A stretch of DNA of 64,000 nt from a phage. The stretch is taken from the NCBI GenBank assembly GCA_022901335.1, contig GCA_022901335.1_3641.1. One strand, 5' to 3'. Within the stretch, counting starts at the first letter, position 1, and each line of letters starts with the position of its first letter. Below are positions 13,001-42,594 of the stretch, one piece after another. The notes under the pieces were generated by a model. The model worked only from the letters and a program-made list of their open reading frames with translations. It was not told the origin of the DNA and did no database searches. The position numbers and the translations under genes are program-made.

Positions 13001-13662
13001 ACAACTACGATGGTAACGGGTACCATCAATACGGTTGGTATATTAACAAGAACGGGCACGCCCAATTTATGGATGTGTGGGTGAAAGGCAACATCAACGC
13101 CAGTTCTGGTAACTTCACAGGGGCAGTTAACGCCACTAGTGGTACCTTCCGTGGGGATGTTTATGCCAATAATGGTAGCTTTAGAGGCACCATAGATGCA
13201 ACCGGAGGTACATTCCGTGGTCGTGTAGAAGCTTCTGTTATCCGTGCTAACCAGTTCGAAGGTGCAATAGTTGCACACAGGACTTACGGGGATTGTGCTC
13301 CAGTATATAACTCCCAGCAAAGGGTTTGCCGTTGGAGGTGGAGATACGTAGATAACGTTTCAGGTCAGGGTAAGAACGTAACATTCTTCTTTAAACTGAA
13401 TGGTACTCTTGCCAGCTCCCAACTGAATGCATGGATAGCTGGTCATCAGATCCTTGCTGGCAAGAAGTATTTTAACGACAACAACGGCATGTGTGCGGTA
13501 GGGATAACAGGTCTTGGTGAACAAACTATAGACATTGTTATCGAGATTTACACACCGTGGTCAACGTCGAGCGTGACAGGTGTCACAATTTCCTGTCCTA
13601 CTGTGATAGTAAGTCGTTCAAACTCTAGCTTCCAGGGACCTTGGAACGAGTCTCACGACTAA
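10063..13662 (+). CDS. central tail fibre / host specificity protein (lambda gpJ-like) with fibronectin-III-like domain
   Basis: 1199 aa; N-terminal gpJ-like region (…CYDPR…), FN3-like segment (YTATVVATSYKGGVSPEA), coiled-coil stretch, C-terminal GTF/GSF repeats. Confidence 0.55.
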   Translation: MPIAMIDNIVASARSSSYDWNASKAALADSLNTVTTRTLDKIFEGNKSYRSQQDRQKLLRSSAAPCSVVYGKTRTSGLLAFLEQDSDRTLHCAIVLANHPLEGIEDILIDGNPISSYGDLVSWELHNDRKTSDPFMGTHCPSWSPDMIGRGISWLRASFKFDPNKFPFGLPNVTLVKVGKKCYDPRISKEVYTNNAALVILDYLRTYLKCPDETINWESFKEAANICDEAVKNADGTSERRYTINGEFDMDEAPASIMAEMLKACGADLSYVAGKYGLLVGAYYGPATMTLSEDCVCGEVKIYPEASFDKRSNTITGRFTSPTKGYSETDFPSVFVPEWVEKDGERKIIDIDYRFVTSPYQAQRVSAIFLRRARAGRIIEVTCNMRGFKFKPGRYVTMDLPSIGIVGQEMRVLEWEFTKKGGVKVKLRQDAKEWNDATGQLPDSGDVDIPISPSGVAQPQNFRYSVLQAGEVTHGVLAWDNVGTYAQNIVQVRKNGEIVWTAQTVEQFVRVEGLTKGSYTATVVATSYKGGVSPEAYCEFNIQAPEAPVSVEVKQGYFAITLIPHSRDLASVSTQYDFWTSGMTRLPDTSDATVTSKATRMGVGSTWTSEGLQNDKIYYWYIRTTNAFGSSAFVECAAHCYTSIEDLMPQIDAEFKKTETYKELTANLDNAVKEMDKNVGAVNDRVTSIFEELGDTIEGVVRETTEKFTGVNGEISALNSKLVAAQQSFDDKLAAESGRLGSLIETTNRSTVDLVNRKTQALSEQITATQGTLREELKNTESKLNSSIQETNKATTDLLNKTTEAIKQDLVAATGKITKLEDDVQKEVANLQASIQETNSTTVDLVNNTATAIRQELTSAKQEIVDEMGNIDELRATVSNTSKAVTTLEGKIDAQWGAKIQVDSAGNKYVAGIQLGMEGSGGQVQSYFMVSANNFAVYNPGNGTATLAFAIKNNQAFLKDAFIENGTISSAKIAQEISSNNYDGNGYHQYGWYINKNGHAQFMDVWVKGNINASSGNFTGAVNATSGTFRGDVYANNGSFRGTIDATGGTFRGRVEASVIRANQFEGAIVAHRTYGDCAPVYNSQQRVCRWRWRYVDNVSGQGKNVTFFFKLNGTLASSQLNAWIAGHQILAGKKYFNDNNGMCAVGITGLGEQTIDIVIEIYTPWSTSSVTGVTISCPTVIVSRSNSSFQGPWNESHD

Positions 13663-13671
13663 CCTTTAAAG

Positions 13672-13698
13672 CCCCGCTTCGGCGGGGTTTATTTTTAT
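13672..13698 (+). terminator. rho-independent terminator (CCCCGC-TTCG-GCGGGG + T-run)
   Basis: perfect 6-bp GC stem, TTCG loop, TTTATTTTTAT. Confidence 0.6.
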
Positions 13699-13705
13699 GC
13701 TCAGA

Positions 13706-13734
13706 TTGACTATTGTTACAAAATTTGGTAAAAT
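13706..13734 (+). promoter_or_regulatory. sigma70-like promoter TTGACT-N17-TAAAAT
   Basis: hexamers with 17-bp spacer upstream of GTG-initiated baseplate gene. Confidence 0.5.
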
Positions 13735-13767
13735 ACCTTGTAGAGATTTTCATACCGGAGGAGTGAC

Positions 13768-15258
13768 GTGGCTAAGTATGGATTGACAGAGGCTGGTTTC
13801 GTTATACCAACCCTAAATGACCTAATCGTTGAAACTAAGCAAAGCCTGATCCGTGCTTTTGGCGAAAACTTCAACGTACAGAGTAACTCCGTTGCAGATA
13901 AGCTGACCACTATCTTCAACGAGCGAGAGTATCAACTTATTCTTATGGCAGCATCTGTATACGCATCACAGACGCTGTATGGGGCAGAAGGTATTTACCT
14001 GGATGAGCTTCTTGGAAGACAGGGTATTTACCGAAGAGGCCGTTCTAAATCATCAGGTACCTGCCAGTTGACAATCAACACAACTGTGCCGTACAATATG
14101 ATTTATGATTCCAAAACTTATACGCTGGACAGTGGCAACTTTGTTCTTAGCAATGATGTGCAGGTGGCAGGGAATCTTATTGCCCACAGAATAAATGCTC
14201 CAGACCTAAGGATTGGTAAATACAACTTTCAAATTACCAACCAGACAGATGGAAGTATCAAAACAAAAAGTCTGGTTTTAACAGATAAGGCTCTAGACTC
14301 TTCTGATCTGCCAAGCTTTTACGGAGAGATTAAGCAATTCATTGTCGATAATACAACCCTGTTGAACGACGATTTGATTCAGATCGATATGTTGACAGGA
14401 ACGTTGTGGATAGGGTACAATTCGAATCTTGATCAAGTTGGACTTAACAGCAGAGTAGATTTCAGAGTATCCCCGATTGTAGGGGAAAGAACTATCACAC
14501 TGGATGTTATCGCTAACGAGGCTGGTGAGCTGTCAAGAGAGGCAGAAACCGTGACAACAATGTCACCTACTCCCAGTGGATTTATCAAGCTTACCAACCG
14601 AGAAAGATTCAATGAGGGCAGGGATGTTGAGAAAGACTCAGAGTATCGCTTAAGAGCTTCCAGCACAAAACAGTTAACATCTAAGGCTACCCGTCCTGCA
14701 ATCCTTAGCGCTGTAAGCGAGGTGAAAGGTGTTGAGAAAGTGAGAGTGTTCTCCAACAACACCGATAAAACTGATGCTAAAGGTATACCTCCTTACAAGT
14801 TCCAAGTGGTTGTGTTTGGTGGTGCAACGGAAGACATTTGCCAAGCACTTTACCAAACTATAGCCTGTACGAACAGGACTTATGGTAATATTTTCTACGA
14901 TGTCACTACATCTGACGGTCAAACTGAAAGAATTTATTACTCCAAGGCAAACACCTACCGCCTGGATATGAGAATTACCTACTCCGGTGCTGCGCTTTCT
15001 ACAACCGAAAAAGATGCCATTATAGAGGCTCTTTTGCAGGTTGTTAACGGACTGGATGTTGCAGATACGTTGTATAATATCCAATTGGTAGGTGCTGCAT
15101 CTGCTGCTGTGTCAATAGGCAGATTTAATAGACTGGTAATTCAAGTTAAATCCGTAGGAGCTTCTGATGAAGCTTACACTACAAACGATATTGTTGCGAA
15201 CATGACCGAGGTGTTTGACCTCGACGAAAGTAATATAACTTTCCAACAAACTATTTAA
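13768..15258 (+). CDS. baseplate J-like protein (P2 gpJ / T4 gp6 family)
   Basis: GTG start with RBS GGAGGA; N-terminal MAKYGLTEAGFVIPTL...FGENFNV...S pattern typical of Baseplate_J. Confidence 0.55.
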   Translation: MAKYGLTEAGFVIPTLNDLIVETKQSLIRAFGENFNVQSNSVADKLTTIFNEREYQLILMAASVYASQTLYGAEGIYLDELLGRQGIYRRGRSKSSGTCQLTINTTVPYNMIYDSKTYTLDSGNFVLSNDVQVAGNLIAHRINAPDLRIGKYNFQITNQTDGSIKTKSLVLTDKALDSSDLPSFYGEIKQFIVDNTTLLNDDLIQIDMLTGTLWIGYNSNLDQVGLNSRVDFRVSPIVGERTITLDVIANEAGELSREAETVTTMSPTPSGFIKLTNRERFNEGRDVEKDSEYRLRASSTKQLTSKATRPAILSAVSEVKGVEKVRVFSNNTDKTDAKGIPPYKFQVVVFGGATEDICQALYQTIACTNRTYGNIFYDVTTSDGQTERIYYSKANTYRLDMRITYSGAALSTTEKDAIIEALLQVVNGLDVADTLYNIQLVGAASAAVSIGRFNRLVIQVKSVGASDEAYTTNDIVANMTEVFDLDESNITFQQTI

Positions 15259-15269
15259 GGCGGCGAGAT

Positions 15270-15956
15270 ATGGCAGAGATTAAGTCGGATGTTAACCACA
15301 TCCACGCTCTGCCAGATTTTGTTCAGGGAGGTCTTGACTACCTACCTGGAGATTTTCTGGCTGAGAAGGTTAATTTAGTCACATTCTTAACCGTATACCT
15401 TAAAAGGTTGGAGGATGTTGATAAGATGCTGGTAGGTTTGGCTGAAGGAAGATTGCTTAACAATGCCAGCGGAAGATACCTTGACGAAGTTGGTAATCAA
15501 CTTGGTATTCTTAGGAATGGACTTTCAGATGCTGATTTTCGTGCCACACTAATTATTCAGCAGGCCGCAGCATCAAGGGGCGGGACTCGCGAAGATGTCA
15601 TCTCCACCTTGCGACAATTGTTCGGAAGAGACAATTTCGATACGTGGAAAGGAGACAACTTCAGGTTTGACATAAATATTAGAAAAACTTGCTTTGACAT
15701 ATTGCAGTCTATCGATCAGATCTTAGATATGCTACCATTACCTTGTCATTTGCGTCTTACAGAATCGCAAGGGCAAGCTTTTGGTTTTGAAGGGGACTCT
15801 ACAGCTCTTGGCTTCGGATCAGTGTGGGAAGAAAGCCAATTCGGAGTTGGTGGGCTGGCTACTTTGCTATATGTTCCTGACGTAAGACCTGATTGGGACA
15901 CCACAACCATTTATTGTGAAAGTATTACAGTAAACGCAACTAGACAGGAGGGTTAA
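15270..15956 (+). CDS. baseplate protein (P2 gpI / DUF2612-like)
   Basis: follows J-like gene; LDEVGNQLGILRNGLSDADFR motif resembles gpI-type baseplate proteins. Confidence 0.4.
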   Translation: MAEIKSDVNHIHALPDFVQGGLDYLPGDFLAEKVNLVTFLTVYLKRLEDVDKMLVGLAEGRLLNNASGRYLDEVGNQLGILRNGLSDADFRATLIIQQAAASRGGTREDVISTLRQLFGRDNFDTWKGDNFRFDINIRKTCFDILQSIDQILDMLPLPCHLRLTESQGQAFGFEGDSTALGFGSVWEESQFGVGGLATLLYVPDVRPDWDTTTIYCESITVNATRQEG

Positions 15957-18028
15957 TGGCAACAGCTGTTTTTAAACCTTACCGTGATTACTCTACAATG
16001 GCTGCACAGTTTCATTACCGAACAGTTCAGGATACTGCCGTTCCTGGTAGGGATTATAATCATGTTGAGGGCGATGTAACTATCCCAATTGGGGCAACCA
16101 GTATTGAGATCCCCGTGGAAATTGTTGACAAATTACCCAACAGGTTGCCAAGAAGCTTCTTTATGGAGTTTTCATCAAAATCTCAAGGGGTGATGATTGG
16201 AACACAAAGGGCGAAATGTACAATAGTTTCAGATGAGAATCTTGACAGGATATCTTGGGATACTGTTGAGGAGAGAATGTTTCACCCAAGGTATTGGGTT
16301 ACAACTACTCAGCAGACTGAAAGTACCTGTATTGTTGCAGATAACAACTGTTGTATTAACCGTTTAGTGTCAAGAACATATGGAGGTATGGCTGGGTGCA
16401 TTTGGGAAACAGTTGACAAGTATGACCATTTCGGTATTGGGTTTGATGATCACTATGAGATGAGAAACACCAAGCTTTGGTTCAGAATGTCAATAACCAA
16501 TGCCAGCAACTTCTCCACCCCTGAAAAGATGATTATGACTGTAGACCTTGTTGATGGCACAATCATCTATGTTCCTTTAGCTCAATATGCTGTCAGCATC
16601 TCAGAGGATAAGAATGTTGCAGAGATTCATATTGATTTCGAGGACTGCGTCGGGATGGATCAGAACAACAACATGATGGGTGTTGATCCTCGACAGGTGA
16701 GAAGGATTTTAATACCGCTTATGCCTAAAGACTGGGTAAGTAATAGCACAGACCCGAGAACGGAAAATGTAGAGTGTGAGTTGCGCCTAGATCTGCTCCA
16801 GCCAGACACAGGCTGGAAAATGATGCAACTTAACAATATTCAGGTTAAAGAGCACGACGTTGGGATCTGCACCGCATATGACGATATGTGGAACGTATCT
16901 CCTTTAAGGGTGTTGAACAATATCAAGCGTCTGGGCTATACCGGAACCATAAACCATTATGTTGGTATGAGTCATTATTATGACTACACATGGTCAGGAA
17001 CCCAATGGTCTATAAACAGAACAGGGGCGCTAAACGCTGCAGCTTATAAATGGCATGATGATTTTATGTACAATGCCAAACGACATAACTTCGACGTTAT
17101 GCAATCTGTAAGTTTTGAGCTTTTCAGCGATGCCTGCCCGTTGGAATGGACCCAAAGAGACTGGAACGATAACTACGCTAAAACAGGGTATACACCTTGT
17201 AGCTACCTCCTGTCTCCAACCATTGAAGAGGGTATGAATTTCCTTACTGCAGTATTTAAGAATTTTGCATCAGCCGCTATGAGAAACAACCTGCCAGTGA
17301 TTATGCAGGTTGGTGAACCGTGGTGGTGGTACAATACCGATACTCGTAGACCTTGTATTTATGATTACCCTACAAAGCAGGCGTTTTATGATGAGACAGG
17401 TGAGTATGCATTAGATATTGGGACTATTGACGATCCTAAAACTGGCGGTGTTTACGACAAGTATGTAGCATTTTGTCGTGGTAAGCTTGGCGCTCGTATT
17501 GCGGCTATTTCAAAGGCAATAAAGGCACACGCTGCATCAGCTCAGATGACAGCTTTGCTGTTTTTCCCAACCATCATGGAAACCGAGCTTACGCAAAAGC
17601 TGAACCTTGCTGACCAATATAAAAAGGAAGCAGGTGCTCTTGATTTCTTCTGCACCGAGTGCTACGATTGGGTGATGCAGGGGGGTATTGAAAAGGCAAA
17701 AGAGTCTGTAAACATACCTATCGTTAAGTTAGGTTGGCAACCGTCTGAAATACAATACCTTGCAGGGTTCGTTCCTAGTAAAGAGCTTGCTCCGGTATAT
17801 GGATACGACCCAACTAGGAATTACCAAGAATTTTTATGGAGATGTATTTGCGGAAACATGGCAACTATAGAGTATAGATACCCTGAGGTAAAACAGTATG
17901 TGTGGGCATACCCGCAAGTAATGTCTGACAGCATCACTGTTACCGCTAGAGATTCTACCGTGCTTCATATGGGGCAGGTTGCTCTGAAAGGGTATGTAGA
18001 AGATGTTGTCCCGCCAGACTTCTCATAA
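15956..18028 (+). CDS. structural protein with Calx-beta-like N-terminal domain, possible glycanase
   Basis: AVPGRDYNHVEGDVTIPIGATSIEIPVEIVD resembles a Calx-beta motif; rest unassigned. Confidence 0.4.
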   Translation: MATAVFKPYRDYSTMAAQFHYRTVQDTAVPGRDYNHVEGDVTIPIGATSIEIPVEIVDKLPNRLPRSFFMEFSSKSQGVMIGTQRAKCTIVSDENLDRISWDTVEERMFHPRYWVTTTQQTESTCIVADNNCCINRLVSRTYGGMAGCIWETVDKYDHFGIGFDDHYEMRNTKLWFRMSITNASNFSTPEKMIMTVDLVDGTIIYVPLAQYAVSISEDKNVAEIHIDFEDCVGMDQNNNMMGVDPRQVRRILIPLMPKDWVSNSTDPRTENVECELRLDLLQPDTGWKMMQLNNIQVKEHDVGICTAYDDMWNVSPLRVLNNIKRLGYTGTINHYVGMSHYYDYTWSGTQWSINRTGALNAAAYKWHDDFMYNAKRHNFDVMQSVSFELFSDACPLEWTQRDWNDNYAKTGYTPCSYLLSPTIEEGMNFLTAVFKNFASAAMRNNLPVIMQVGEPWWWYNTDTRRPCIYDYPTKQAFYDETGEYALDIGTIDDPKTGGVYDKYVAFCRGKLGARIAAISKAIKAHAASAQMTALLFFPTIMETELTQKLNLADQYKKEAGALDFFCTECYDWVMQGGIEKAKESVNIPIVKLGWQPSEIQYLAGFVPSKELAPVYGYDPTRNYQEFLWRCICGNMATIEYRYPEVKQYVWAYPQVMSDSITVTARDSTVLHMGQVALKGYVEDVVPPDFS

Positions 18029-32339: not shown

Positions 32340-32573
32340 TTAATCTTCGTAAATCAGGATTTCTGCTTTAGGTTTTCGTGCTTTCAGGTCCAGCTCTATC
32401 CAGTGCACCATAGCTGTTTCAAGAAAAACAGCTTGGATGCATCCGTCCTCAGCGTGCCCCACCAACATAACAAGATCTTCACCTTCGTCATCTGCATCAC
32501 GAACATACAGAATCTCTCCAGATTCAAAGTCTTTCACAACCTGATTGCTGGATAATTTACGAATTTTTGCCAT
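32340..32573 (-). CDS. small protein, divergent member of tandem paralog family
   Basis: 77 aa; weak similarity to the three 87-aa paralogs upstream. Confidence 0.4.
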   Translation of the reverse strand: MAKIRKLSSNQVVKDFESGEILYVRDADDEGEDLVMLVGHAEDGCIQAVFLETAMVHWIELDLKARKPKAEILIYED

Positions 32574-32574
32574 A

Positions 32575-32838
32575 TCAGAAACCCTCTAAAAAGCTCTTGT
32601 AGAAAATAATTTCAGTGTCCACACCTGTCACGATCTTATCGTTTCGGATCTCATCGGTAAGATAGGTGTCAAAACGCAGAACCTGTGTGGTGTTGTCACA
32701 CATCCACTCAGCTGTGACCATTGCGAAAATCTTAGCATCTTCATTATCTGGTGTGAATGTTACCACCTCACCGCACTTAAACTTTTCGATAGGCTGAGTG
32801 TTAGCTTTCGGTTCTGCGATAGTGATTTTTGTGGTCAT
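32575..32838 (-). CDS. small protein, tandem paralog family member 3
   Basis: 87 aa; shares CGxVV...VTGVDTEIIF core with neighbours. Confidence 0.5.
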   Translation of the reverse strand: MTTKITIAEPKANTQPIEKFKCGEVVTFTPDNEDAKIFAMVTAEWMCDNTTQVLRFDTYLTDEIRNDKIVTGVDTEIIFYKSFLEGF

Positions 32839-33101
32839 TATTCTCCTCCTTCTTTCGAATAGCTTGTCTCTCCAAGGATGGTAATTTTGGTATCAAGCTC
32901 TGTAACTTTCATGTTTGGCGGCAGATCGTACAACTCATTATTTTCTAAATCGAATCCCCACACACAATGTTCTCCTGTTTTGACAATCATAACTATGTTT
33001 TGAATGCCGTCTCCGTCGCAACTTACCACGGTCCCACACGGAAAACTGTCTGCACGCTTTTTGTTCTTCACCTTAGAATTGAATACAATGCTAGTAGCCA
33101 T
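32838..33101 (-). CDS. small protein, tandem paralog family member 2
   Basis: 87 aa; MATS..F.SK.K.KK..S..CGTVV...VWGFDL...VTELDTKITILGE; ATGA overlap with neighbours. Confidence 0.5.
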   Translation of the reverse strand: MATSIVFNSKVKNKKRADSFPCGTVVSCDGDGIQNIVMIVKTGEHCVWGFDLENNELYDLPPNMKVTELDTKITILGETSYSKEGGE

Positions 33102-33364
33102 TATTGTTCCTCCACCATAACTTCGCCAAGAATTTCTATGCAGGCATCCATTTCTGTAACAACCAAACTGTGAGGTAGTTCTACAAACACCTTTCTGAAC
33201 AGGTCAAATACCCCAACATATATGTTTGCAGGATGTGATTTTACAACAAGTGCTGTATTCACATCCCCAAGTTCATCAACAAACATCACCACAGTGCCTA
33301 GAGCTACTGAGGACAGATACTTCTTAGTTTTACGGTTTGATGCAAATTTTAACTCTGTTGCCAT
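33101..33364 (-). CDS. small protein, tandem paralog family member 1
   Basis: 87 aa; MATELKFASNRKTKK...GTVV...VGVFDL...VTEMDACIEILGE. Confidence 0.5.
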   Translation of the reverse strand: MATELKFASNRKTKKYLSSVALGTVVMFVDELGDVNTALVVKSHPANIYVGVFDLFRKVFVELPHSLVVTEMDACIEILGEVMVEEQ

Positions 33365-33379
33365 AAATAGCCTCCTCTC

Positions 33380-34861
33380 TTACTTAGCGTACTCGATTAA
33401 TTCCACAGTTTTCCCAAAGCTCGGGATATAATTTTTATTATACCCTTCAGTGAGAACCCATAAAGTATCGTACTTTTTCCACTTGTTGTCAACAGCCTTT
33501 TGTTCAAAGTTATGCTCAAAGTATAGGTCGGTCAGGACGATGACATCTTTTGCATTCGGTATGTTGGCATCCAGATACTCGAACACGCAAGCAGCTGTTG
33601 TGCCCCATGTTGAGTGGACCTCATAGTTGATCATTTCGTCTATGTTGCCGCGAGTATATACTTTAACCTCTCCGACTTCAGTTGACCAACAGAACATTGT
33701 AACCTTAAACTCTTTATACAGATTGCACAATCCGGTGATTTCATTGAACATTTTCTTTAAAGTTCTTTGAGAGATCGAGCCAGAAACGTCTAAAGCTACC
33801 ACAATATCTATGGTGTTTTCCGGATTACGACCAGGAACAATAACGTGCTGGTTCTTGTTTATAGCCCCAACTTTTCGCATTGTGCTGGTCAAAGACCCAG
33901 ATCGGCGACCAGGTTTTCTGTAGGTCAGTTCGGCCTTTCTTTTAGACAACATGCGTTGCTTGATGATGTCTATATAATTGATTACAGGCTTACCTCTATT
34001 CTTGACAAACTCACGAACCGCCTCAGGGCAACGGCCTCCGGAAGCTTGCATTGCTGCCTCCAGCATGTCACCAGAGTCCTGCATGGCCTGATCTTTATCA
34101 GATTGGCTTATTACAGGTTGTGGCTGATCATACCCCATAGCTTTTCCAAGATCATCACTGGTGCCACCGTTACCACTCATGTGATCATCGGTTTGTCGCT
34201 TATCACCTTGAGAGTTCTCACCTTTACCGCTCTTACTTTTACCGTTATTCTGATCTCTTTGCTTATCAAGAACTGCATAGACGTTCTCAGCAATCCATCC
34301 ATGAAACTTCATGTCGCAGTAGCAGTTAGCTAAGAAGCCAAAAGGCTTGCCTTTCACGAACGTAGTGCTTTTCCCCTTCGGGAAGAAAACACAAGGAGGC
34401 TTGCTAAAGTCAACCACAAGACCTGTGTTGATAACGTGATCACAAGCAATATTAAACAGTTCCGGCTCAAAGCTCTTACCACGGACCAGGTGATCACAGA
34501 TAATATGCCCCACCTCATGTGACAGAAGAAAGGCCACCTCTTTCACAGATTTGGGGGAATAGAAAACCTCAGCCATCTCAAACTGCTTGTCAGTTAGAGA
34601 AGCCTTAAGAATAGCCTTGCGTTCATCAGCCAATCCCATAATGAACTCAGGACTGTAATAGATGCGTTTATGGTCGGTTGCCATGGTGGAGCACCATGTG
34701 TGGTTTTCTACGAACTGCAACCCTGACAGTAGTGTGCCATAGAACGGCAGCTTTTCAAGGAGATACATACGTGCAGCCTGCAACATTCTCAGGGCATCAT
34801 CTTTCTGCGAGGCAATGATTTCTGAACTTCTGCTATCCATTAAAACTCCAGAAGGGGCCAT
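33380..34861 (-). CDS. VWA-domain protein with N-terminal HExxH metallopeptidase-like domain
   Basis: HEVGH motif in N-terminal half; MIDAS-type DVSGSIS in C-terminal half. Confidence 0.6.
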   Translation of the reverse strand: MAPSGVLMDSRSSEIIASQKDDALRMLQAARMYLLEKLPFYGTLLSGLQFVENHTWCSTMATDHKRIYYSPEFIMGLADERKAILKASLTDKQFEMAEVFYSPKSVKEVAFLLSHEVGHIICDHLVRGKSFEPELFNIACDHVINTGLVVDFSKPPCVFFPKGKSTTFVKGKPFGFLANCYCDMKFHGWIAENVYAVLDKQRDQNNGKSKSGKGENSQGDKRQTDDHMSGNGGTSDDLGKAMGYDQPQPVISQSDKDQAMQDSGDMLEAAMQASGGRCPEAVREFVKNRGKPVINYIDIIKQRMLSKRKAELTYRKPGRRSGSLTSTMRKVGAINKNQHVIVPGRNPENTIDIVVALDVSGSISQRTLKKMFNEITGLCNLYKEFKVTMFCWSTEVGEVKVYTRGNIDEMINYEVHSTWGTTAACVFEYLDANIPNAKDVIVLTDLYFEHNFEQKAVDNKWKKYDTLWVLTEGYNKNYIPSFGKTVELIEYAK

Positions 34862-34873
34862 TGGCCCCTGTTA

Positions 34874-35914
34874 TTATTTAACGTGTTTGAAAATACCTGC
34901 CAACTCGGTCATTGTCATGCGGGTGGTCTTCATAAGATCTGTCATAGCTTTCTCCATAATTGGAGATACTACCATAAAGTTTCCTTTAGTGAAACCTTTA
35001 TTCCAGTCGGTCACCAACAGAGGTTTAAGTCCAGCTCCAAGACGTTCACCAGTTAAAGCACAGCATTTGCGAATATACGAACTCTTAAATTGGCTGAACG
35101 ACAGATCAACTTTCATACCTACATCGTAGAACGTTTGACAATAGAAAGTGTAAGCTTTGGCAATCTCAACATCATCAGGTAGTGCAGGAACCTCTTCTGT
35201 AAGCTCCTCTTCGACCTCCTGAGTCTCTTTTTCCTCTTCATGCACCTGTTGCGTCATTTCTTCAATCTCTTCTGTGATAGGCTCGTTTACAATGTCGGAA
35301 ATGTGCTTCTTGGGTGCACGATAAGTAACTTTAGACATCGGTAGCATATCTTCCTCCTCTTCTTCGTCAAAGAGTGCTAGTTTATCCTCTTCCGTTCCAT
35401 ATTGCAAGATGAAATCTTCAAAAGTATAATCACCTTTCAATTTCTCCATACGCTCTTCGCTCAGGTGGAGCATCATCTGCTGGACAATTTTTCGATCAGT
35501 TTCGTCTTTAATCAAGACTGCAGTCTTTTTATCTACCAGACAGTCCTTTAGAGAGTTGCATCTCAATCCCACCACACAACAGTTATCAACCGCATAAGGA
35601 CCTTCATCATCTATCCGCTCCAGAGATGGGTAGAAAGGATTTCCCAGCCCGTTTTCATCTGTGTGCATGTCAAAAGGTATAAGGGTATAGTCGCATACTC
35701 CATCTCCTAAAAGTTTTTTACCAAATAGGAGGTATTCTTCCCATGACAGGTCGAACTCTATATCTCGTTTCCGTGCGTTATTCTGTTTGCGTCTATATTT
35801 TTTGAGCAAGCGCTCTAACTCTTCCGGTGTATAATATTTTTCAAGATTCATGAGTCGTCTCTCGTGCTCTGTAAGTGAAGAAATCGTATCAATTGTCTCA
35901 ACAGATGTCAACAT
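34874..35914 (-). CDS. protein with two HNH-like (S-x-E/D-R-I-D type) domains separated by an acidic linker
   Basis: ATG at 35914 (track start 35917 is TTG); DIEFDLSWEEY...SLERIDDEGPYAVDNCCVV and a second similar unit; poly-E linker. Confidence 0.45.
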   Translation of the reverse strand: MLTSVETIDTISSLTEHERRLMNLEKYYTPEELERLLKKYRRKQNNARKRDIEFDLSWEEYLLFGKKLLGDGVCDYTLIPFDMHTDENGLGNPFYPSLERIDDEGPYAVDNCCVVGLRCNSLKDCLVDKKTAVLIKDETDRKIVQQMMLHLSEERMEKLKGDYTFEDFILQYGTEEDKLALFDEEEEEDMLPMSKVTYRAPKKHISDIVNEPITEEIEEMTQQVHEEEKETQEVEEELTEEVPALPDDVEIAKAYTFYCQTFYDVGMKVDLSFSQFKSSYIRKCCALTGERLGAGLKPLLVTDWNKGFTKGNFMVVSPIMEKAMTDLMKTTRMTMTELAGIFKHVK

Positions 35915-35924
35915 CAAAAACGTG

Positions 35925-35953
35925 TTGACTTTACTCTAACTCCACAATATAGT
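35925..35953 (+). promoter_or_regulatory. sigma70-like promoter TTGACT-N17-TATAGT in divergent intergenic region
   Basis: near-consensus hexamers 40 bp upstream of the 35994 ATG, 10 bp from the minus-strand gene start. Confidence 0.55.
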
Positions 35954-35993
35954 GCACCCATTCGAAAGAAAACTAACATAGGAGCACTTACTT

Positions 35994-36899
35994 ATGGCAA
36001 ATCTTAACAGTTTTAGTACGCGGTGGAAACAGGACATAACAACCAATCTTTCAGCTGGAGACATCCTTTCTGCAATTTACGAGGCTTTAGATGATAAAGC
36101 TACTTCAAAAGCGGTTTGTACCAACCCACTAATTCCTGTAGTGATGAAGGTTATTGAGCGTAGATTGGTATCTGGGTCTGATAAGTGGACATATTTAGAT
36201 AATGAAGGACACACCTATTCCAATGGGTACGTCGATATAAAAGTAGAATACGCGGTATCATACCGCCGGAGCGGTTCTGTAACTTTCAACTTCTCTGGAG
36301 GTTTTCGATCTCTGGCTACCTCACCTTTTGTTTCCTCAGAGGAGAAGTATGAGCTGCCATTTCTTTGGATGATGGCTAACGCGACAGGAAAAACCCCCGT
36401 TAGCATCCGAGTAAAATACAACTACAACGGATCTAGTAAGATCTATGCCGAAAGTGTCTCAGCAAGTTTTTATTTTGTGATGGGGGATGGAATCCTCAAA
36501 CATATAAAGATGTGCGATATGCATGATGTTATAAATGAAGTGACTGATAAGAATGTTCTAGTGAAAGACCTCAACAATTTTTATACACCCGGAGACTATT
36601 ACGTCAGCCGTCCACTGTGCATCTTTAATGCCGCACACCCTCTAGGTGAGTATTTGATCGCCAATAGCGATATTGCCAATAACCGCTTCGAGGTAGCAAG
36701 AGTTCAGAATGAGGTATTGACATCTTGCAAGAGCGGTGATAAGTTTACCGAAGAAGAGATGGGTGTTTTAGAAATGATGGGATATAAGTGTAGCCTTTGG
36801 GTAGATGAGGTGTTTAATGATTGCATCTATGGACAGGATATTTACCCATTAAAGAAGTATACTGATTCCAGTTTAATTTACGCGGAGATTTTACTATGA
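35994..36899 (+). CDS. hypothetical early protein
   Basis: 301-aa ORF with RBS AGGAG. Confidence 0.55.
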   Translation: MANLNSFSTRWKQDITTNLSAGDILSAIYEALDDKATSKAVCTNPLIPVVMKVIERRLVSGSDKWTYLDNEGHTYSNGYVDIKVEYAVSYRRSGSVTFNFSGGFRSLATSPFVSSEEKYELPFLWMMANATGKTPVSIRVKYNYNGSSKIYAESVSASFYFVMGDGILKHIKMCDMHDVINEVTDKNVLVKDLNNFYTPGDYYVSRPLCIFNAAHPLGEYLIANSDIANNRFEVARVQNEVLTSCKSGDKFTEEEMGVLEMMGYKCSLWVDEVFNDCIYGQDIYPLKKYTDSSLIYAEILL

Positions 36900-37168
36900 T
36901 GAAGGCATGTGGTAGTGTATACTATGTGGGTGAAAATGTTCAGGCAGACAATGTGTGGAAATCCATTAAGTCCACCACCGATGATGCCTTCTTGAGCGGG
37001 TTATGTTTCCCCAATCCAGGGGACATCCTTCCTCACCCTGGAGATTTTGTTGTTAACAAGATGGACGGTTATACCGTGTGCCTGATGGTTGAAAAAATCT
37101 TTTTAGACACTAGACACAATCACCGTCTTGTGTTAAAATTTCAAGAATGTAAAATGACAATTGCCTAA
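36896..37168 (+). CDS. hypothetical protein
   Basis: 90-aa ORF, overlap-coupled. Confidence 0.45.
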   Translation: MMKACGSVYYVGENVQADNVWKSIKSTTDDAFLSGLCFPNPGDILPHPGDFVVNKMDGYTVCLMVEKIFLDTRHNHRLVLKFQECKMTIA

Positions 37169-37181
37169 GGAGGCCTTACCG

Positions 37182-37538
37182 ATGTCTAAAGCTACTTATC
37201 GTGCAGCTATTTACTGCAATGAACACCCCATCAATAATGATGGTCACTGCCTTTTTAAAGAAAATCAGTTGGGCTGTATTGTCCTACCTGATGAAGGGAA
37301 AGGTTATCTGATTGCATTGACAGGGTTCGAGCCTGAAGCTTTGGAAGCCAATCTGGACTATCTGGTAGAAGAGGGTGCTGCAGACCTGGTTTCCAATGGA
37401 CTCGCCATAAGCCTTGACGAGGTGGAGCGCTTCATGGGCAATTACCGTGTAGTGCGTGAGTTTACTATCGAGGTGGAAACTCCAGAGTGGGGTAGCACTG
37501 AAACTAACGCCGAAGAAAAAGAAGAGGAGGTAGAATAA
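37182..37538 (+). CDS. hypothetical acidic protein
   Basis: ATG 37182 after RBS AGGAGG (track start 37161 is TTG). Confidence 0.45.
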   Translation: MSKATYRAAIYCNEHPINNDGHCLFKENQLGCIVLPDEGKGYLIALTGFEPEALEANLDYLVEEGAADLVSNGLAISLDEVERFMGNYRVVREFTIEVETPEWGSTETNAEEKEEEVE

Positions 37539-37795
37539 TGAAAGTGCAGATCTTGACTAATGCCGAGAAGATGTTTATTGAAGATACACCTTTTGAAGCT
37601 GGTGAGCTACAGTTCGTTTATTTTGTTGACTTAGATAAGGTGTTCCCTGCACTGAATCTGGGTCTGGATGAAGTTCCTCATAAAGTTTTGTGCCAAGTTG
37701 TTCGTGCCTTAGCGGCAGATGGGGATTTCCACACCCTTGAAGATATCCAGACCTACGGGTATCTTGAACTGCAACGAGAAGAAGAGGTGGACTGA
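37538..37795 (+). CDS. hypothetical protein
   Basis: 85 aa, RBS GAGGAGG. Confidence 0.45.
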   Translation: MKVQILTNAEKMFIEDTPFEAGELQFVYFVDLDKVFPALNLGLDEVPHKVLCQVVRALAADGDFHTLEDIQTYGYLELQREEEVD

Positions 37796-37797
37796 TA

Positions 37798-38178
37798 ATG
37801 GCCCGGTGGAAGACAACAGTTGACCTTCATGATCAGTGGTTAGGACGCATCGCTGAAGACGGGAAACTAGTAGAGTGGGACAATAAGCATGTTAGCGAGT
37901 TGGCAAGCATTGTGGCTGGCAAGTTACGCTCCAAGTTCCCTGAACAACTGGATCCTGATAGTTCAAAGTTCGATCCTGAGTTGGAGGATGTTGTATACTA
38001 CTTCGATACCGTGGATGACTACGATGCGTGGTTTGCAGCACGGGAGCTTTACCCACAAGGCTCTGCTATGCGCCAGATGGAAGAAGATTATCCTCCGTGT
38101 GAGCAATTCAATAGTGCAATGACTTGCCTCTATGATTGGGCAGATAAGAACCTTGTCTGGATTCGGACTGCATTTTAG
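37798..38178 (+). CDS. hypothetical protein
   Basis: 126-aa ORF. Confidence 0.45.
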   Translation: MARWKTTVDLHDQWLGRIAEDGKLVEWDNKHVSELASIVAGKLRSKFPEQLDPDSSKFDPELEDVVYYFDTVDDYDAWFAARELYPQGSAMRQMEEDYPPCEQFNSAMTCLYDWADKNLVWIRTAF

Positions 38179-38222
38179 TGGGCAGGAATGGCGGCAAGGA
38201 TGCTGCTTAAGGAGTAGTAGAA

Positions 38223-38492
38223 ATGTTATACCAGCAATATGAACTTCGTGCAGAAAAAGAGTTAAATTTTGACAAAGATATTCACAGATATTATTATGGG
38301 AAAGTTAGAGGGCAAGCAAGAAAGTGTACTCCAACACTCTTTTATGCCAGCAGACGACTAGCGCCAGAAGAGGCAACAGCAGAAAGGGTTGCGTACAACT
38401 GGAGAGTCACGTATGATATTGACAGATTCGATGTGATATCTGTTTTGGAAAACTTTGAAAACACTTACACACAAGTAGAGGACTTTTACTAA
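38223..38492 (+). CDS. hypothetical protein, coupled to AAA+ gene
   Basis: RBS AAGGAG; stop overlaps next start (TAATG). Confidence 0.45.
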   Translation: MLYQQYELRAEKELNFDKDIHRYYYGKVRGQARKCTPTLFYASRRLAPEEATAERVAYNWRVTYDIDRFDVISVLENFENTYTQVEDFY

Positions 38493-39676
38493 TGTCAAGA
38501 AACGTATTCGAAAGTGGTCAAATCACTGTCCGTGAGTTGCCAGCTATTATTCAGTTTGCCCAACGTCATAGCCGATCTGTCCTAATTTTGGGACCAATGG
38601 GTGTGGGTAAAAGCCAGGTGATGAAGCAGATCGCTGATAATATGTTCGGTGAGCGAGATGACAACCTTGTTGACGTGCGACTGTCAGATAAAGATCCTGC
38701 CGACTTATCTGGGCTACCTATCCCTGTAGAAGCGGATGGAACTACACGTACAGTGTTTGCAATTCCAGAATTTTGGCCTGCGGATCCTGACTGGAGCGGA
38801 ATTATCTTTCTGGATGAGCTCACTCATGCAGATAACTACCTGCAAAAGGTTGCAATGCAAATTATGCTTGACCACAAGTGCGGCACCTATGCATTCCCTA
38901 AGGGTTCTGTTTTTGTGGCTGCGGGTAACCGTTCTACAGATGGTGCGGTTCTTTCGGCGCTCGAAGCCCCTCTGGCTAACCGTTTTATCATTGTAGAGGT
39001 TACAAGCAATGCAGAGGTGTTTATTGAGGACTACGCATTCCTTAATGGGGTGCACTCCTCTGTAATTGGATATCTGAAAAGAGTTCCATCAGCTATCGAT
39101 AATTATGAGGCCATGGCTGAGATTAATTGTCCATCTTTTGCCACACCGCGATCTTGGGTTGCTGCATCTGATATCTTGCACGATTTTGACAGCGGTATTA
39201 TTTCTGACGCTATGGCCCGTGTTCTTCTGCAAGGTGCTATTGGTCACACTGCAGCGGTAGAGATCTGGACATACCACACCAAGAAACGCAATTTACCGGA
39301 AATCGGTCGGATTATGGCAGGTGGCTGCAAAGAATACGTAGGCCCTAAGCAGCCAGACATTTTGTGGATTCTTGGATCTGAAGGTTGTATCGCTATTCGT
39401 AATATGATGGAAAATGCAAGTATCTCAGACGAAGATCTTGTCAGCTGCGTGGCAAACTTCCTCGATTTCCTTTGGGAAAACTTCAAGGACGAGAACCGAG
39501 ATTTTGTATTCTCAGTCTTTATGGCGATGATGAAACCTAATGCCTTAGGAAATGCCTTGCTTATCGGTAAAGGTCGTGACAAGATTGTTGCTCAGCTGAT
39601 CAAAGCATACCCAAACCTGATGAAGATTGTAAAAGAGTTTGGTGAAGAGTTTAGCGCCATTTTGGCTAAAGCTTAA
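38492..39676 (+). CDS. MoxR-like AAA+ ATPase (AAA_5-type)
   Basis: Walker A GPMGVGKS, Walker B IIFLDEL, sensor motif LANRF. Confidence 0.65.
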   Translation: MSRNVFESGQITVRELPAIIQFAQRHSRSVLILGPMGVGKSQVMKQIADNMFGERDDNLVDVRLSDKDPADLSGLPIPVEADGTTRTVFAIPEFWPADPDWSGIIFLDELTHADNYLQKVAMQIMLDHKCGTYAFPKGSVFVAAGNRSTDGAVLSALEAPLANRFIIVEVTSNAEVFIEDYAFLNGVHSSVIGYLKRVPSAIDNYEAMAEINCPSFATPRSWVAASDILHDFDSGIISDAMARVLLQGAIGHTAAVEIWTYHTKKRNLPEIGRIMAGGCKEYVGPKQPDILWILGSEGCIAIRNMMENASISDEDLVSCVANFLDFLWENFKDENRDFVFSVFMAMMKPNALGNALLIGKGRDKIVAQLIKAYPNLMKIVKEFGEEFSAILAKA

Positions 39677-39685
39677 GGAGGTTGT

Positions 39686-40066
39686 ATGGCTAAAGTAGGT
39701 AAGCGGGGAAACTACCTGGTGGTATTGACCGAGGAGCCGGAGAAGGAGTACGAATGCAGCTCCACTTGCGTGATCGATATCCGAGAAAAAGATGTAGATG
39801 AAATCTGGTTTAAAATATTGGACGCTTGCGATAGCAGTGATTATTTCTTCATCTATGTCAACGATAAGGCTGGGTTCTTCCATGACGACGGAGAGTTGCC
39901 GTATGAAATCTATGAACTTGTAGAGGCTTGCCATCGTGGAGATGCGGAGTTGTTTGGCTTACGGCTGAAAAGCGGTAAATTCTTCTATCAAGATGAGTGC
40001 ATGAATCTTCATAACTTTGTAGAGGGAACTTGCAACGATGGAGAGATTTTGGCACACTACGATTAA
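39686..40066 (+). CDS. hypothetical protein
   Basis: 126 aa, RBS AAGGAGG. Confidence 0.5.
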   Translation: MAKVGKRGNYLVVLTEEPEKEYECSSTCVIDIREKDVDEIWFKILDACDSSDYFFIYVNDKAGFFHDDGELPYEIYELVEACHRGDAELFGLRLKSGKFFYQDECMNLHNFVEGTCNDGEILAHYD

Positions 40067-40078
40067 TTTCTAATACCA

Positions 40079-40105
40079 CCCCGCTTCGGCGGGGATTTTC
40101 TATTT
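40079..40105 (+). terminator. rho-independent terminator (CCCCGC-TTCG-GCGGGG + T-rich)
   Basis: same hairpin as at 13672, followed by ATTTTCTATTT. Confidence 0.55.
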
Positions 40106-40114
40106 GGAGTTATT

Positions 40115-40615
40115 GTGAAAATTAAGATCTTTGCTATTATTTTGAGCGCATTTTTATCGCTGCCTGTTGTTGCAGCACCAAAACAAAAAGTATATCATAC
40201 TTGCAAGCCCTCAGATACTAAGGAAAACATTTTGGCATGTAATATCTACAGGGAAGCTAGAGGGGATGGCACGATGGGTATGCTGGCATCTGGGTTTGCC
40301 ACATTAAACAGGAAATCTCACCCTAAATACCCAGACACTATAAGAAAGATTGTCTACCAACCTAACCAGTTTTCGTGGACAAACCACGGCAAAACTTTTA
40401 AGGTGACAGAAAAAGATTCATGGGATCACGCTAAAAGTCTTGCAAAGATGCTTCTAAAGGTCTATAATAACAACCATGTTGCATACATGGCTATGGATAT
40501 AACAGGTGGAGCAACACACTACCATACAACCAAAGTACGACCGAAATGGGCAAAAAAGATGCAGAGGACAGCTCAATTCGGGAGCCATATCTACTACAAG
40601 GAGCGCAATAAATGA
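40115..40615 (+). CDS. secreted cell-wall hydrolase, SleB/CwlJ-like (Hydrolase_2 family)
   Basis: GTG start with RBS GGAG; signal peptide MKIKIFAIILSAFLSLPVVAAP; ILACNIYREARGDG...ATLNRKS...VYQPNQFSW. Confidence 0.6.
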   Translation: MKIKIFAIILSAFLSLPVVAAPKQKVYHTCKPSDTKENILACNIYREARGDGTMGMLASGFATLNRKSHPKYPDTIRKIVYQPNQFSWTNHGKTFKVTEKDSWDHAKSLAKMLLKVYNNNHVAYMAMDITGGATHYHTTKVRPKWAKKMQRTAQFGSHIYYKERNK

Positions 40616-42594
40616 TTGTAAACAGTAATGAAACTAAAGCAGTGCTAACCGGAAATATGGAGGTCACCAGGGGCTCAATTTCTCTTAACAAAGAGACTTT
40701 TGGGCTAATCATTAAAGGGATTTACGAAGATAAGGTGCTGGCAAGCTGCCGTGAACCAATCTTCAATGCTGTGGACTCTCATGTTGAGTCTGGACGGGGT
40801 GATGTGCCGATCATTATTCACTCTCCTACAGACCTTGAACCATACTTCTTTGTGCAGGACGTTGGATTGGGCATGTCAGAAGAGATGGTCCGCAACACTT
40901 TCATGAACCTCGGTGAGTCAACCAAGCGCAACAGCAACGCTCTGGTTGGCAATAAAGGTGTTGGTTCAAAGGCTCCGTTCAGCATGGTGGACACTTTCGA
41001 TGTTATCAGTGTGCACAATGGTATTGAAAGCACATATCTATTGTTCTTGGATCAGGGTATCCCAAACGTTACCAAGATCCGCGAGCGGAAGACTGAAGAG
41101 CACAACGGGGTAAAAGTTCAGTTCCATGTTAAGAAAGAGCATGTCCTGAAATATCGCACTGCTATTGCATCGTGCTTACGCTATGCGAAGTTTCCGTTCA
41201 TCGTCACCGATCCCATGACCAGTAAGATGTTAGAAGGTGACAAGGTTGAGGCACAGTATCATTACGAGAAGGATGGCTGGAAAATGACCATCCTGAAAGG
41301 TTATACCAGTTCTGATGAGAGCCGTGTTGTGATGGGTCACCAACCTTACCGCTCCAAGTTCCTGGAGACATTGACCGATTACCCTGCAATCTGCGTGGAA
41401 ATTCCTATTGGGGATTGCAATATTAACCCTGGGCGTGAATGGACCATAGAGGGCCATGACGACGGTGGATTCCAGGATCGCCTGGAGGCATTTGTCAAAG
41501 AAGGTATACGTCTTCGCGGGGCAGAAGTTGTTGCAGAACTGGAGACGGCAAAAACCTCCGCAGAAGCACGTGAAATGATGAAGAATAGTGGAGTGTTCGG
41601 ACACATCTTCGGCAAGAACTTTATGTGGAACCGTTGGGAAGAAACAGGGCTTGGCGACTTAGGCGATTGTGAAATTTTCGCTGGCGGCTTAAATAAAGGC
41701 CGCATAGACTATGCTCGTTACGGAAAGTCGGAGTTCTTACGAGGTGTATACCTTGTATTTAACGACGGAGACGGCAAATATAACCGGAATAAGTGTAACT
41801 ACTTAAGCGAGATCACCGGACGCAACGTTTTCTATTGCCGGAACACGGATCTGGTGAAAGAGTTTAAAGAGGCGGCACACCATCCTTTCTTTGCAGATAC
41901 GGTCAAATTGTTATCGGAGCTTCCACGCCGACCTGCGAAGAAAGGTGAAACCAAAACTCGTTACAAGCCAGGCTACTGGGTTAAGAAGCTTAGAGAGGAT
42001 GGCTACTTCCATCGTGAGCGCCTCACGAAGGCAGAGTTCAAGAAGATTAAGCATTGCATCCCTTATGAGGGGGATATCCAACGGGGAAGCTGCTGGCTGG
42101 GCCAGATGAGTAACATCTACCAGCAAAATTATGACCGTGTGCGTGCTGCACTCCAGATTCCTGAAGGTGAAGATCTGTACCTGGTATCAGAATCTCGTCT
42201 GCTTTGGACTGATCCTGATTGCCAGTATGTTACAGAGAAGAATGTGGAACATTTGTTGAAAGAGGATGCTTGGAAATTCTTACTGACTCGCGCAGCAAAT
42301 GAAACTTCATATGACAGCCTGTATAGACAATTAGGGAAAATTATCCCCATGCAGGATTTTGGAAATTATCGGCCACATTTCCACAAGTGGGAAGGTAACA
42401 CCGCGTGGAAGCACAGTGAGCTAAATCATCGTGCCAAAATCTTAATCGCCAACCGGGTTAAGTGCGGGAAGGCCTATATTGCAAGATTGGAAAAGAAATA
42501 TCCACTTTTGAAGCATGTGGGCTTGAAATATTGGGACACTCCTGCTATGATTGAATACCGTGAACTGATCGATACAAAGAATAACATCAAATAA
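40612..42594 (+). CDS. rIIA: rIIA-like protein (GHKL ATPase fold)
   Basis: N box REPIFNAVDS, G1 VQDVGLGMS, G2 VGNKGVGSKAPFSMVDTFDVISVHNG align with T4 rIIA N-terminus. Confidence 0.75.
   Translation: MIVNSNETKAVLTGNMEVTRGSISLNKETFGLIIKGIYEDKVLASCREPIFNAVDSHVESGRGDVPIIIHSPTDLEPYFFVQDVGLGMSEEMVRNTFMNLGESTKRNSNALVGNKGVGSKAPFSMVDTFDVISVHNGIESTYLLFLDQGIPNVTKIRERKTEEHNGVKVQFHVKKEHVLKYRTAIASCLRYAKFPFIVTDPMTSKMLEGDKVEAQYHYEKDGWKMTILKGYTSSDESRVVMGHQPYRSKFLETLTDYPAICVEIPIGDCNINPGREWTIEGHDDGGFQDRLEAFVKEGIRLRGAEVVAELETAKTSAEAREMMKNSGVFGHIFGKNFMWNRWEETGLGDLGDCEIFAGGLNKGRIDYARYGKSEFLRGVYLVFNDGDGKYNRNKCNYLSEITGRNVFYCRNTDLVKEFKEAAHHPFFADTVKLLSELPRRPAKKGETKTRYKPGYWVKKLREDGYFHRERLTKAEFKKIKHCIPYEGDIQRGSCWLGQMSNIYQQNYDRVRAALQIPEGEDLYLVSESRLLWTDPDCQYVTEKNVEHLLKEDAWKFLLTRAANETSYDSLYRQLGKIIPMQDFGNYRPHFHKWEGNTAWKHSELNHRAKILIANRVKCGKAYIARLEKKYPLLKHVGLKYWDTPAMIEYRELIDTKNNIK

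Follow-up and report, generated by a model that had tools for sequence, protein, structure and literature searches.

In a 64,000-nucleotide stretch of phage DNA (contig GCA_022901335.1_3641.1 of assembly GCA_022901335.1, one strand; hereafter the window) we have analyzed two genes that lie on opposite strands and code, respectively, for a MoxR-type AAA+ ATPase and for a DUF2201-family protein in which a zincin-like metallopeptidase domain is joined to a VWA domain. More than 100 Escherichia phages of the genus Vequintavirus, among them rV5, LL12, WalterGehring/Bas51 and EdH4, share 97-98% identity with this region over 7.1 kb, and the window is itself an rV5-like Vequintavirus. The corresponding rV5 products are gp4 for the ATPase, gp12 for the VWA protein and gp11 for an Srd-like protein encoded between them. 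The distance from start to start is 3631 nucleotides (nt), and is occupied by the Srd-like gene on the − strand and by six small open reading frames (ORFs) on the + strand; other genes close to the pair are rIIA/rIIB and those for a helicase and a cell-wall hydrolase. Each of the two genes is present in a single copy in the window, which contains no alternative VWA or MoxR partner. An earlier note, based on a reading of the letters alone, had recognized both ORFs and their motifs, had placed them about 3.6 kb apart on either side of a divergent promoter region at 35.9 kb, and had suggested that they are the two halves of a MoxR/VWA system. The ATPase, its motifs, the separation and the promoter region are all found where that note had them; the VWA ORF, its HEVGH motif and its Pfam domains are also present, while its start, given as 34861, is more likely at 34840. 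The genes and their motifs are as follows.

38492..39676, + strand: MoxR-type AAA+ ATPase, rV5 gp4, 394 amino acids (ORF, PHROG match, alignment, fold)
38591..38614, + strand: Walker A, GPMGVGKS (alignment, motif mapping)
38801..38821, + strand: Walker B, IIFLDEL, with D108 and E109 invariant (alignment, motif mapping)
38918..38986, + strand: sensor-1 AAGNR to PLANRF, the arginine-finger region, with LANRF at 38972..38986 (alignment, motif mapping)
33380..34840, − strand: DUF2201-family protein, rV5 gp12, 486 amino acids from the ATG at 34840
34490..34519, − strand: zinc-binding/catalytic motif HEVGHIICDH, of the form HExxHxxxxH (alignment, motif mapping)
33527..33790, − strand: metal ion-dependent adhesion site (MIDAS) residues of the VWA domain (alignment, motif mapping)
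33790..33776, − strand: MIDAS DVSGS (D358-x-S360-G-S362), invariant
33601..33599, − strand: MIDAS T421, invariant
33529..33527, − strand: MIDAS D445, invariant
34853..34869, − strand: GC-rich hairpin AGGGGCC-AAT-GGCCCCT, perfect 7-bp stem and 3-nt loop, between the Srd-like stop and the VWA start

Identity of the two proteins

Judged by their database matches, neither ORF is a chance ORF: the ATPase matches phrog_1297 (E 2e-110), and the VWA protein matches phrog_1314 (E 4e-123) as well as the Pfam models DUF2201_N (PF13203; E 3e-28, 99.5 bits against a cut-off of 23.2) and DUF2201 VWA-like (PF09967; E 3.6e-11, 43.7 bits against a cut-off of 26.4).

In an alignment of 26 ATPase sequences the motifs GPMGVGKS, LDE, AAGN(146)R and PLANR(164)F are all invariant, as are individually the sensor-1 N146, R147, R164 and R220; the stretch AAGNR...PLANRF parallels the 'ATQNP...LPEAQLDRF' of MoxR. 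Scans with the sequence itself were weak (a single-sequence search of the PDB gave matches only at the level of the P-loop, to ClpB, ClpC and p97), and we therefore used a profile, an AlphaFold2 (AF2) model and a fold search. The best PDB match of the alignment profile is midasin (E 2e-10), with an alignment that spans Walker A to the NRF motif. The AF2 model (predicted local distance difference test score, pLDDT, of 85) has its first 17 Foldseek matches exclusively in NorQ, including NorQ-NorD complexes, and CbbQ2, with TM-scores of 0.6-0.69 on the target; the MoxR protein CHU_0153 and cso-CbbQ appear further down the list, and RFC, MCM and dynein are also among the lower matches. In the predicted model a helix-2 insert hairpin (E76-81/E84-89) lies between β2 and β3, and a short pre-sensor-1 hairpin (129-134) between α3 and β4; the protein also has a C-terminal helical extension of ~100 amino acids.

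A search of a large protein database returned thousands of ATPase homologs, among which those at ~34% identity (E ~1e-44) carry Pfam AAA_3, AAA_5 and sometimes bpMoxR. In this sister group 13 of 13 sequences match AAA_5 and AAA_3, and 4 match bpMoxR, while none of 13 Vequintavirinae-type members reaches E 0.001 on these models: MoxR membership of the window ATPase at the Pfam level is thus transitive rather than direct. Overall, the homologs and the predicted fold support placing this ATPase in the MoxR clade whose members use VWA partners, since NorQ and CbbQ act through such partners. Two other assignments were tried and rejected. A CobS/CobT-like auxiliary metabolic gene pair is contradicted by the Pfam matches of both proteins, which include no CobS or CobT family; for a defense system, PADLOC gave only P-loop-level matches to the ATPase (E ≥ 0.003) and none to the VWA protein.

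The VWA protein, gp12, consists of an N-terminal zincin-like metallopeptidase domain, a disordered linker rich in Q, N, G, K and D, a helical region and a C-terminal VWA domain. Across 31 homologs H115, E116, H119, H124, R127 and D141 are invariant, and a weak profile link connects the HExxH helix to minigluzincin MJ1213 and the M48 peptidases; the VWA domain matches NorD in the fold search. By its sequence, gp12 joins a DUF2201_N zincin and a VWA domain whose MIDAS is complete. Our literature search found no characterized DUF2201 member.

Translation from the ATG at 34861 would give 493 amino acids, and from the ATG at 34840, 486. The latter is the more likely start: it has a GGAG Shine-Dalgarno sequence 6 nt upstream and agrees with the public annotation and with the 486-residue cluster representative P0121, while the former sits in the loop of the intergenic GC hairpin. 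This hairpin partly overlaps the region just upstream of the Shine-Dalgarno sequence, and could attenuate or stabilize the transcript that enters the VWA gene. In the 2013 rV5 table gp12 is listed with 441 amino acids and is followed by an overlapping gp13 of 81 amino acids, where the window has a single intact ORF of 486/493 codons; part of the VWA domain has probably been cut off in the rV5 reference by a frameshift or sequencing error. In labels derived from PHROG and RefSeq, 'HNH endonuclease' is used for phrog_1314, the DUF2201 protein, as well as for phrog_3118, the Srd-like protein; other records have 'DNA repair ATPase', 'gp25-like' or 'tail protein'. These look like propagated misannotations, because the Pfam scan finds an HNH domain in neither of the two proteins.

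Co-occurrence and gene order of the pair

Searching 50,697 phage records by tblastn with each protein, we obtained 813 records with the ATPase and 676 with the VWA protein; the counts by host genus (ATPase/VWA) are nearly equal, with 214/212 for Escherichia, 108/104 for Pseudomonas, 26/26 for Pectobacterium, 17/17 for Cronobacter and 17/17 for Achromobacter. Since the union obtained with a fused ATPase-VWA query is 823 records, some 666 records must carry both genes, corresponding to ~666 of the 676 phages with a VWA protein; this figure is a lower bound, because the VWA proteins of N4-like phages are near the detection limit. In 246 records a single place covers at least 80% of the fused query, which identifies adjacent genes in the order ATPase-then-VWA. 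Records at 95% identity or above number 118 for the ATPase and 119 for the VWA protein.

A scan of viral contigs with a single protein as query reached only rV5-like loci, and more distant loci were collected with an alignment-based scan. This gave 80 viral contigs whose ATPase is ~30-35% identical to that of the window, and the 67 loci with at least 600 nt of downstream sequence were judged: in 65 of them the VWA gene directly follows that of the ATPase on the same strand, after a gap whose median is 76 nt. Cellular genomes were scanned with the ATPase alignment, as the VWA alignment was too divergent for a pattern scan. Among the 75 cellular loci judged out of 80, mostly on Campylobacterota chromosomes, 71 have the VWA gene downstream and co-directional (it abuts the ATPase gene in 62), and in none of those examined is it upstream or on the other strand; the chromosome of Sulfurivermis fontis has the same ATPase-then-VWA order. 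Distant viral and cellular loci combined thus show the VWA gene downstream on the same strand in 136 of 142 cases, and on the opposite strand in none. In general, then, it can be seen that ATPases of this kind have an adjacent VWA partner and that the two genes occur together in phages, as the earlier note had anticipated; these comparisons support the view that they are a real, conserved cognate pair.

Some features of the individual loci can be recorded here. The closest cellular relatives of the ATPase (loci L095-L173) are concentrated in Campylobacterota (Sulfuricurvum, Sulfurimonas, Aliarcobacter) and usually belong to chromosomal ATPase-DUF2201 operons; at nine cellular loci genes amounting to 0.6-5.5 kb are inserted between the two. 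Across the lineages searched we found no conserved third gene that accompanies the pair. One locus, L027, has no VWA match in its 1 kb of downstream sequence. At another, L077 (IMGVR_UViG_3300048042_000013), the ATPase has a full-length relative, 28% identical over residues 2-391, and the 10 kb to either side contain no DUF2201 gene; this may be another split case or a loss.

The split arrangement

The divergent layout of the window is found in all seven rV5-like loci, in Mydovirus KpS11 and in phage 4MG (Seunavirus type; for 4MG as derived from match positions), and in NDO71 and Av-05 the ATPase and VWA matches fall in two separate places. The Certrevirus-like phages (CR8, KaOmega, SSBI34) retain the operon, and so does the deep-branching Vequintavirinae phage A5-4, in which only an HNH homing endonuclease lies between the two genes; in PA5oct they are non-adjacent, on the same strand, and the 3 kb between them hold a homing endonuclease and small ORFs. 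Two unrelated phages thus have homing endonuclease genes at the ATPase-VWA junction (9285..9779 in A5-4, locus L088; 5413..6909 in PA5oct, locus L093); insertions may recur at this site, and may be one way in which the operon is broken.

Because the distant loci are operonic and the divergent layout is common to Vequintavirus, Mydovirus and 4MG, we conclude from these comparisons of gene order that the split is derived: an ancestral operon was rearranged, and the new order has been stably inherited. Divergence of the two proteins has been parallel (ATPase/VWA identities of 53%/43% to KpS11 and 37%/37% to A5-4). A5-4 has in common with the window region only the ATPase, the VWA protein and a cell-wall hydrolase, and with so little likeness the breakpoints of the rearrangement are not mappable. 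The arrangement had been called unusual in the earlier note. This is correct with respect to the family as a whole, as the divergent order is unique against the ~140 distant loci (0 of 136), yet it is the normal state in the core Vequintavirinae. The window lacks the operon linkage of MoxR-VWA systems of the NorQD, CbbQO and RavA-ViaA type, but this linkage is a typical trait of such systems and not part of their working.

The divergent promoters and the transcription units

Both genes are within 2.6 kb of one bidirectional promoter region, whose features, and those of the transcription units that leave it, are listed below.

35852..35993: intergenic divergent region, 142 bp
35883..35953: back-to-back sigma70-like promoters (sequence scan)
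35911..35883, − strand: candidate promoter TTGACA-17-TACGAT, TG-extended
35925..35953, + strand: candidate promoter TTGACT-17-TATAGT
34874..35851, − strand: Srd-like 'anti-sigma' gene, rV5 gp11, first of the leftward unit (phrog_3118, 4592, 1400; rV5 paper)
38223..38492, + strand: small ORF, rV5 gp5, 89 amino acids, phrog_13164
40079..40094, + strand: strong intrinsic-terminator-like hairpin, after the ORF at 39686..40066

In diverged relatives the hexamers of both 35.9-kb promoters are conserved while their spacers vary, and the pair matches the bidirectional promoters published between genes 10 and 11 in the rV5 paper. On the left, the Srd-like gene is immediately upstream of the VWA gene, and the order Srd-like, then VWA is the same in Mydovirus KpS11. 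At its longest (34874..35917, from a TTG) the Srd-like ORF would run into the − strand promoter; the plausible start is the annotated ATG at 35851, which leaves an intergenic region of 142 bp instead of 77 bp. On the right, the TAA stop of gp5 shares one base with the ATG of the ATPase (TAATG), an overlap that suggests translational coupling. Some records call gp5 itself an 'ATPase', though it is without any detectable domain. The hairpin at 40079..40094 may mark where the ATPase transcript ends.

Relation to known MoxR-VWA systems

The pair is of a kind already described in other phages, and not a new system. Iyer, Anantharaman, Krishnan, Burroughs and Aravind (2021, Viruses 13:63, PMC7824862) reported a MoxR/vWA-metallopeptidase pair in 'group 2.2' jumbo phages (ASV44729.1, ASV44728.2): the two families are the same, with an N-terminal metallopeptidase fused to the vWA domain, and Rak2-like and other jumbo phages are direct tblastn matches of both window proteins. 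In the jumbo phages, however, the genes are adjacent and co-directional, unlike those of the window with their 3.6 kb of separation on opposite strands, and identities are ~25-28%. Phage N4 gp24 (AAA ATPase) and gp25 (vWFA), long listed as conserved genes, and their Schitoviridae homologs are likewise a homologous pair of core genes, with pre-late expression in N4 and with rIIA/rIIB downstream as in the window; they differ in being adjacent on the same strand, in their identity (~21-27%) and in their shorter length (~350 and ~380 amino acids).

The cellular AAA_5-DUF2201 operons (Sulfurivermis fontis; Sulfuricurvum, Sulfurimonas, Aliarcobacter) contain the same families, with ATPases 33-38% identical and with the HExxHxxxxH and MIDAS residues invariant, but are operonic, as described above. 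The closest solved structures to the ATPase model are those of NorQ/NorD and CbbQ/CbbO (CGN subfamily of MoxR ATPases), and the general logic, a hexameric MoxR ring with a MIDAS-bearing VWA adaptor, may by analogy be the same. Identities with these are 15-22%; NorD and CbbO are without a peptidase domain and serve in metal insertion or Rubisco activation, and the ~100-residue C-terminal helical extension sets the phage ATPase apart from NorQ and CbbQ. The MoxR-VWA system of tail development in Acidianus two-tailed virus (ATV), which Iyer et al. use as a precedent for virion assembly, is another viral MoxR-VWA couple, from an archaeal virus and without a peptidase domain, and is likened to the present pair by description rather than by sequence.

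The 2013 annotation of rV5 named gp4 MoxR and listed gp12, with its DUF2201_N domain, as a conserved hypothetical protein, without connecting the two; current GenBank labels are 'MoxR ATPase' for the former and 'putative metallopeptidase' or 'VWA-like' for the latter. What is new here is the recognition of the cognate pair in the core Vequintavirinae, together with its divergent gene order. It reveals no new mechanism, but corrects the labels 'HNH endonuclease', 'DNA repair ATPase' and 'hypothetical protein' in rV5-type phages, and a pair that is encoded in trans shows that the system can persist without operon linkage. Among phage modules with no assigned function this is one of the most widely conserved (N4-like core, rV5-like, Certrevirus-like, Rak2-like and other jumbo phages; more than 800 genomes). 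As E. coli models rV5, EdH4 and the BASEL Bas51 group are tractable, and allow either gene to be perturbed separately with no polar effect on the other; in EdH4 the CRISPRi-ART paper targeted only the major capsid protein and rII.

Possible function of the pair

These results are best explained, in our opinion with good probability, if the two proteins are the cognate halves of a MoxR/VWA-zincin machine that descends from an operon, whose VWA gene was moved, and whose genes are now read from outward promoters and inherited together. In an ancestor of the core Vequintavirinae the VWA gene would have changed strand and come to lie directly after the Srd-like gene, and both genes would be read outward from a single pair of back-to-back sigma70-type promoters. 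NorQ has been solved in complex with the VWA domain of NorD, so that the docking mechanism of NorQD is known, and the NorD linker is remodeled by ATPase activity; a MIDAS in general captures an acidic residue or peptide of a client protein. With NorQD, CbbQO and midasin as models, gp4 would form a hexameric ring onto which the VWA domain of gp12 docks, while the MIDAS holds an acidic residue of the substrate protein; ATP hydrolysis, passed on through the flexible linker, would remodel the substrate or a partner, and the HExxH domain would then cleave the substrate. It is by homology of this kind that the pair may be described, as in the earlier note, as a 'chaperone/remodelling system', and that we infer physical interaction, ring formation, proteolysis and timing in rV5.

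As to the target, we lean tentatively, at somewhat less than even confidence, to a protein handled before late morphogenesis, a host or replication-phase protein. The reasons are that N4 gp24 and gp25, 2 of the 14 N4-like core genes, are middle transcripts; that the position of the genes is in keeping with this (in N4-type genomes the pair sits between the RNA polymerase II (RNAP II) genes and the nucleotide-metabolism and rII genes); that the promoters are of early type; and that there is no mass spectrometry (MS) evidence for rV5 gp4 and gp12 as virion proteins. The preference is weak, and its evidence positional.

Several observations weigh against this explanation, or against parts of it. 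The Pfam AAA_5 score of the window ATPase is 16.7 bits where the cut-off is 22, and direct Pfam and NCBIfam scans yield generic AAA matches only, all of them sub-threshold, so that its MoxR membership rests on fold, profile and transitive homology. For gp12 the fold search left the N-terminal peptidase fold unresolved, since VWA matches filled the lists. The 7-kb region holds 17 promoter-like sites against 13.6 ± 3.6 in shuffles, which is not above chance, and the best sigma70-like match of the region (TTGACA-17-TATTAT, 11/12) is inside gp5 at 38269..38297, a candidate internal promoter that could regulate the ATPase separately. In the literature we found no transcriptome or other expression data for rV5-like phages.

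The remaining points on this side concern the task of the machine. Iyer et al. favor virion assembly, which they proposed for the jumbo phages by analogy with the MoxR-VWA system of ATV tail assembly; in roseophage RPP1 virion genes that are expressed with the middle class lie near the gp24/25 homologs; the record of the PA5oct ATPase bears an 'ESI-MS/MS' (electrospray ionization tandem mass spectrometry) note, from virion preparations; and core status in the N4-like phages fits an essential function. The same two-protein machine would then be a chaperone and co-chaperone that assembles structural proteins and trims them by proteolysis. We regard this as rather unlikely, and a virion-assembly intermediate is accordingly less favored as the target than a pre-late protein: in rV5, N4 and PA5oct the genes are in early/middle regions (Srd-like, RNAP II, nucleotide-metabolism, rII) and outside the structural modules, N4 gp24/25 are transcribed as middle genes, and rV5 gp4 and gp12 are undetected in virions. 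The PA5oct note is ambiguous and not interpretable, because 7 of the MS matches in the PA5oct paper are given as 'virion-unrelated enzymes' and the paper numbers the genes differently.

A more specific version of the pre-late target seems to us improbable. Here the pair would be a pre-late ATP-gated protease, and not a virion-assembly chaperone, and the substrate to be remodeled and cleaved would be a host protein (for instance a transcription, envelope or defense factor): in the core Vequintavirinae the adaptor-protease, encoded behind the Srd-like anti-sigma gene, would be made with the first host-takeover transcript, and the ATPase from the opposite unit, with separate control of motor and adaptor. 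If true, this would be a new class of host-takeover or counter-defense machinery, present in more than 800 phage genomes and core in the N4-likes.

The opposite strands and different transcription units of the window could also be taken to mean that in rV5-like phages the two proteins have become uncoupled, each acting alone or with other partners; the ATPase might have a private promoter at 38269..38297 and its own terminator at 40079, and the link of the VWA gene to the Srd-like gene is conserved in KpS11. We think this very unlikely, because both genes are kept, with all catalytic and MIDAS residues intact, in all rV5-like genomes (the 118 and 119 records above), the split layout is co-inherited stably across genera, and both genes flank the same bidirectional promoter region at short distance; parallel divergence, record counts and single copies with no other VWA or MoxR partner in the window argue, at the level of sequence, against functional uncoupling. 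Hardly credible, finally, is that the ATPase is some other AAA+ protein (Clp/Hsp100-like, clamp-loader-like or a replication factor) with a coincidental likeness to the usual neighbor of the VWA protein, as the generic Pfam matches, the P-loop-level PDB search and the lower-ranking RFC, MCM and dynein folds might suggest, in view of the NorQ/CbbQ folds at the head of the list, the midasin alignment, the AAA_3, AAA_5 and bpMoxR domains of homologs at E ~1e-44, the two hairpins of the model and the VWA gene adjacent or nearby in 136 of 142 distant loci.

Other features of the region

Directly downstream of the VWA gene, small paralogous ORFs are arranged in tandem on the − strand (32340..33364):

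33101..33364, − strand: paralogous ORF, 87 amino acids
32838..33101, − strand: paralogous ORF, 87 amino acids
32575..32838, − strand: paralogous ORF, 87 amino acids
32340..32573, − strand: fourth, more diverged paralog, 77 amino acids

The first two share 39% identity (E 6e-13), and no homologs of the array were found near the ATPase/VWA pair in other lineages. Among the relatives of the window are 16 'Campylobacter phage' records (MG0656xx; hits H6, H31, H32, H88, H95; host Campylobacter jejuni) that are 98-99% identical here to E. coli rV5-like phages; the host label is odd, and suggests mislabeling or contamination of isolates. Finally, rIIA/rIIB (40612..42594 and beyond in the window) lie a few kb downstream of the ATPase, as they do in N4-type phages (12487..16225 in locus L092), and this proximity may simply reflect a common early/middle module.

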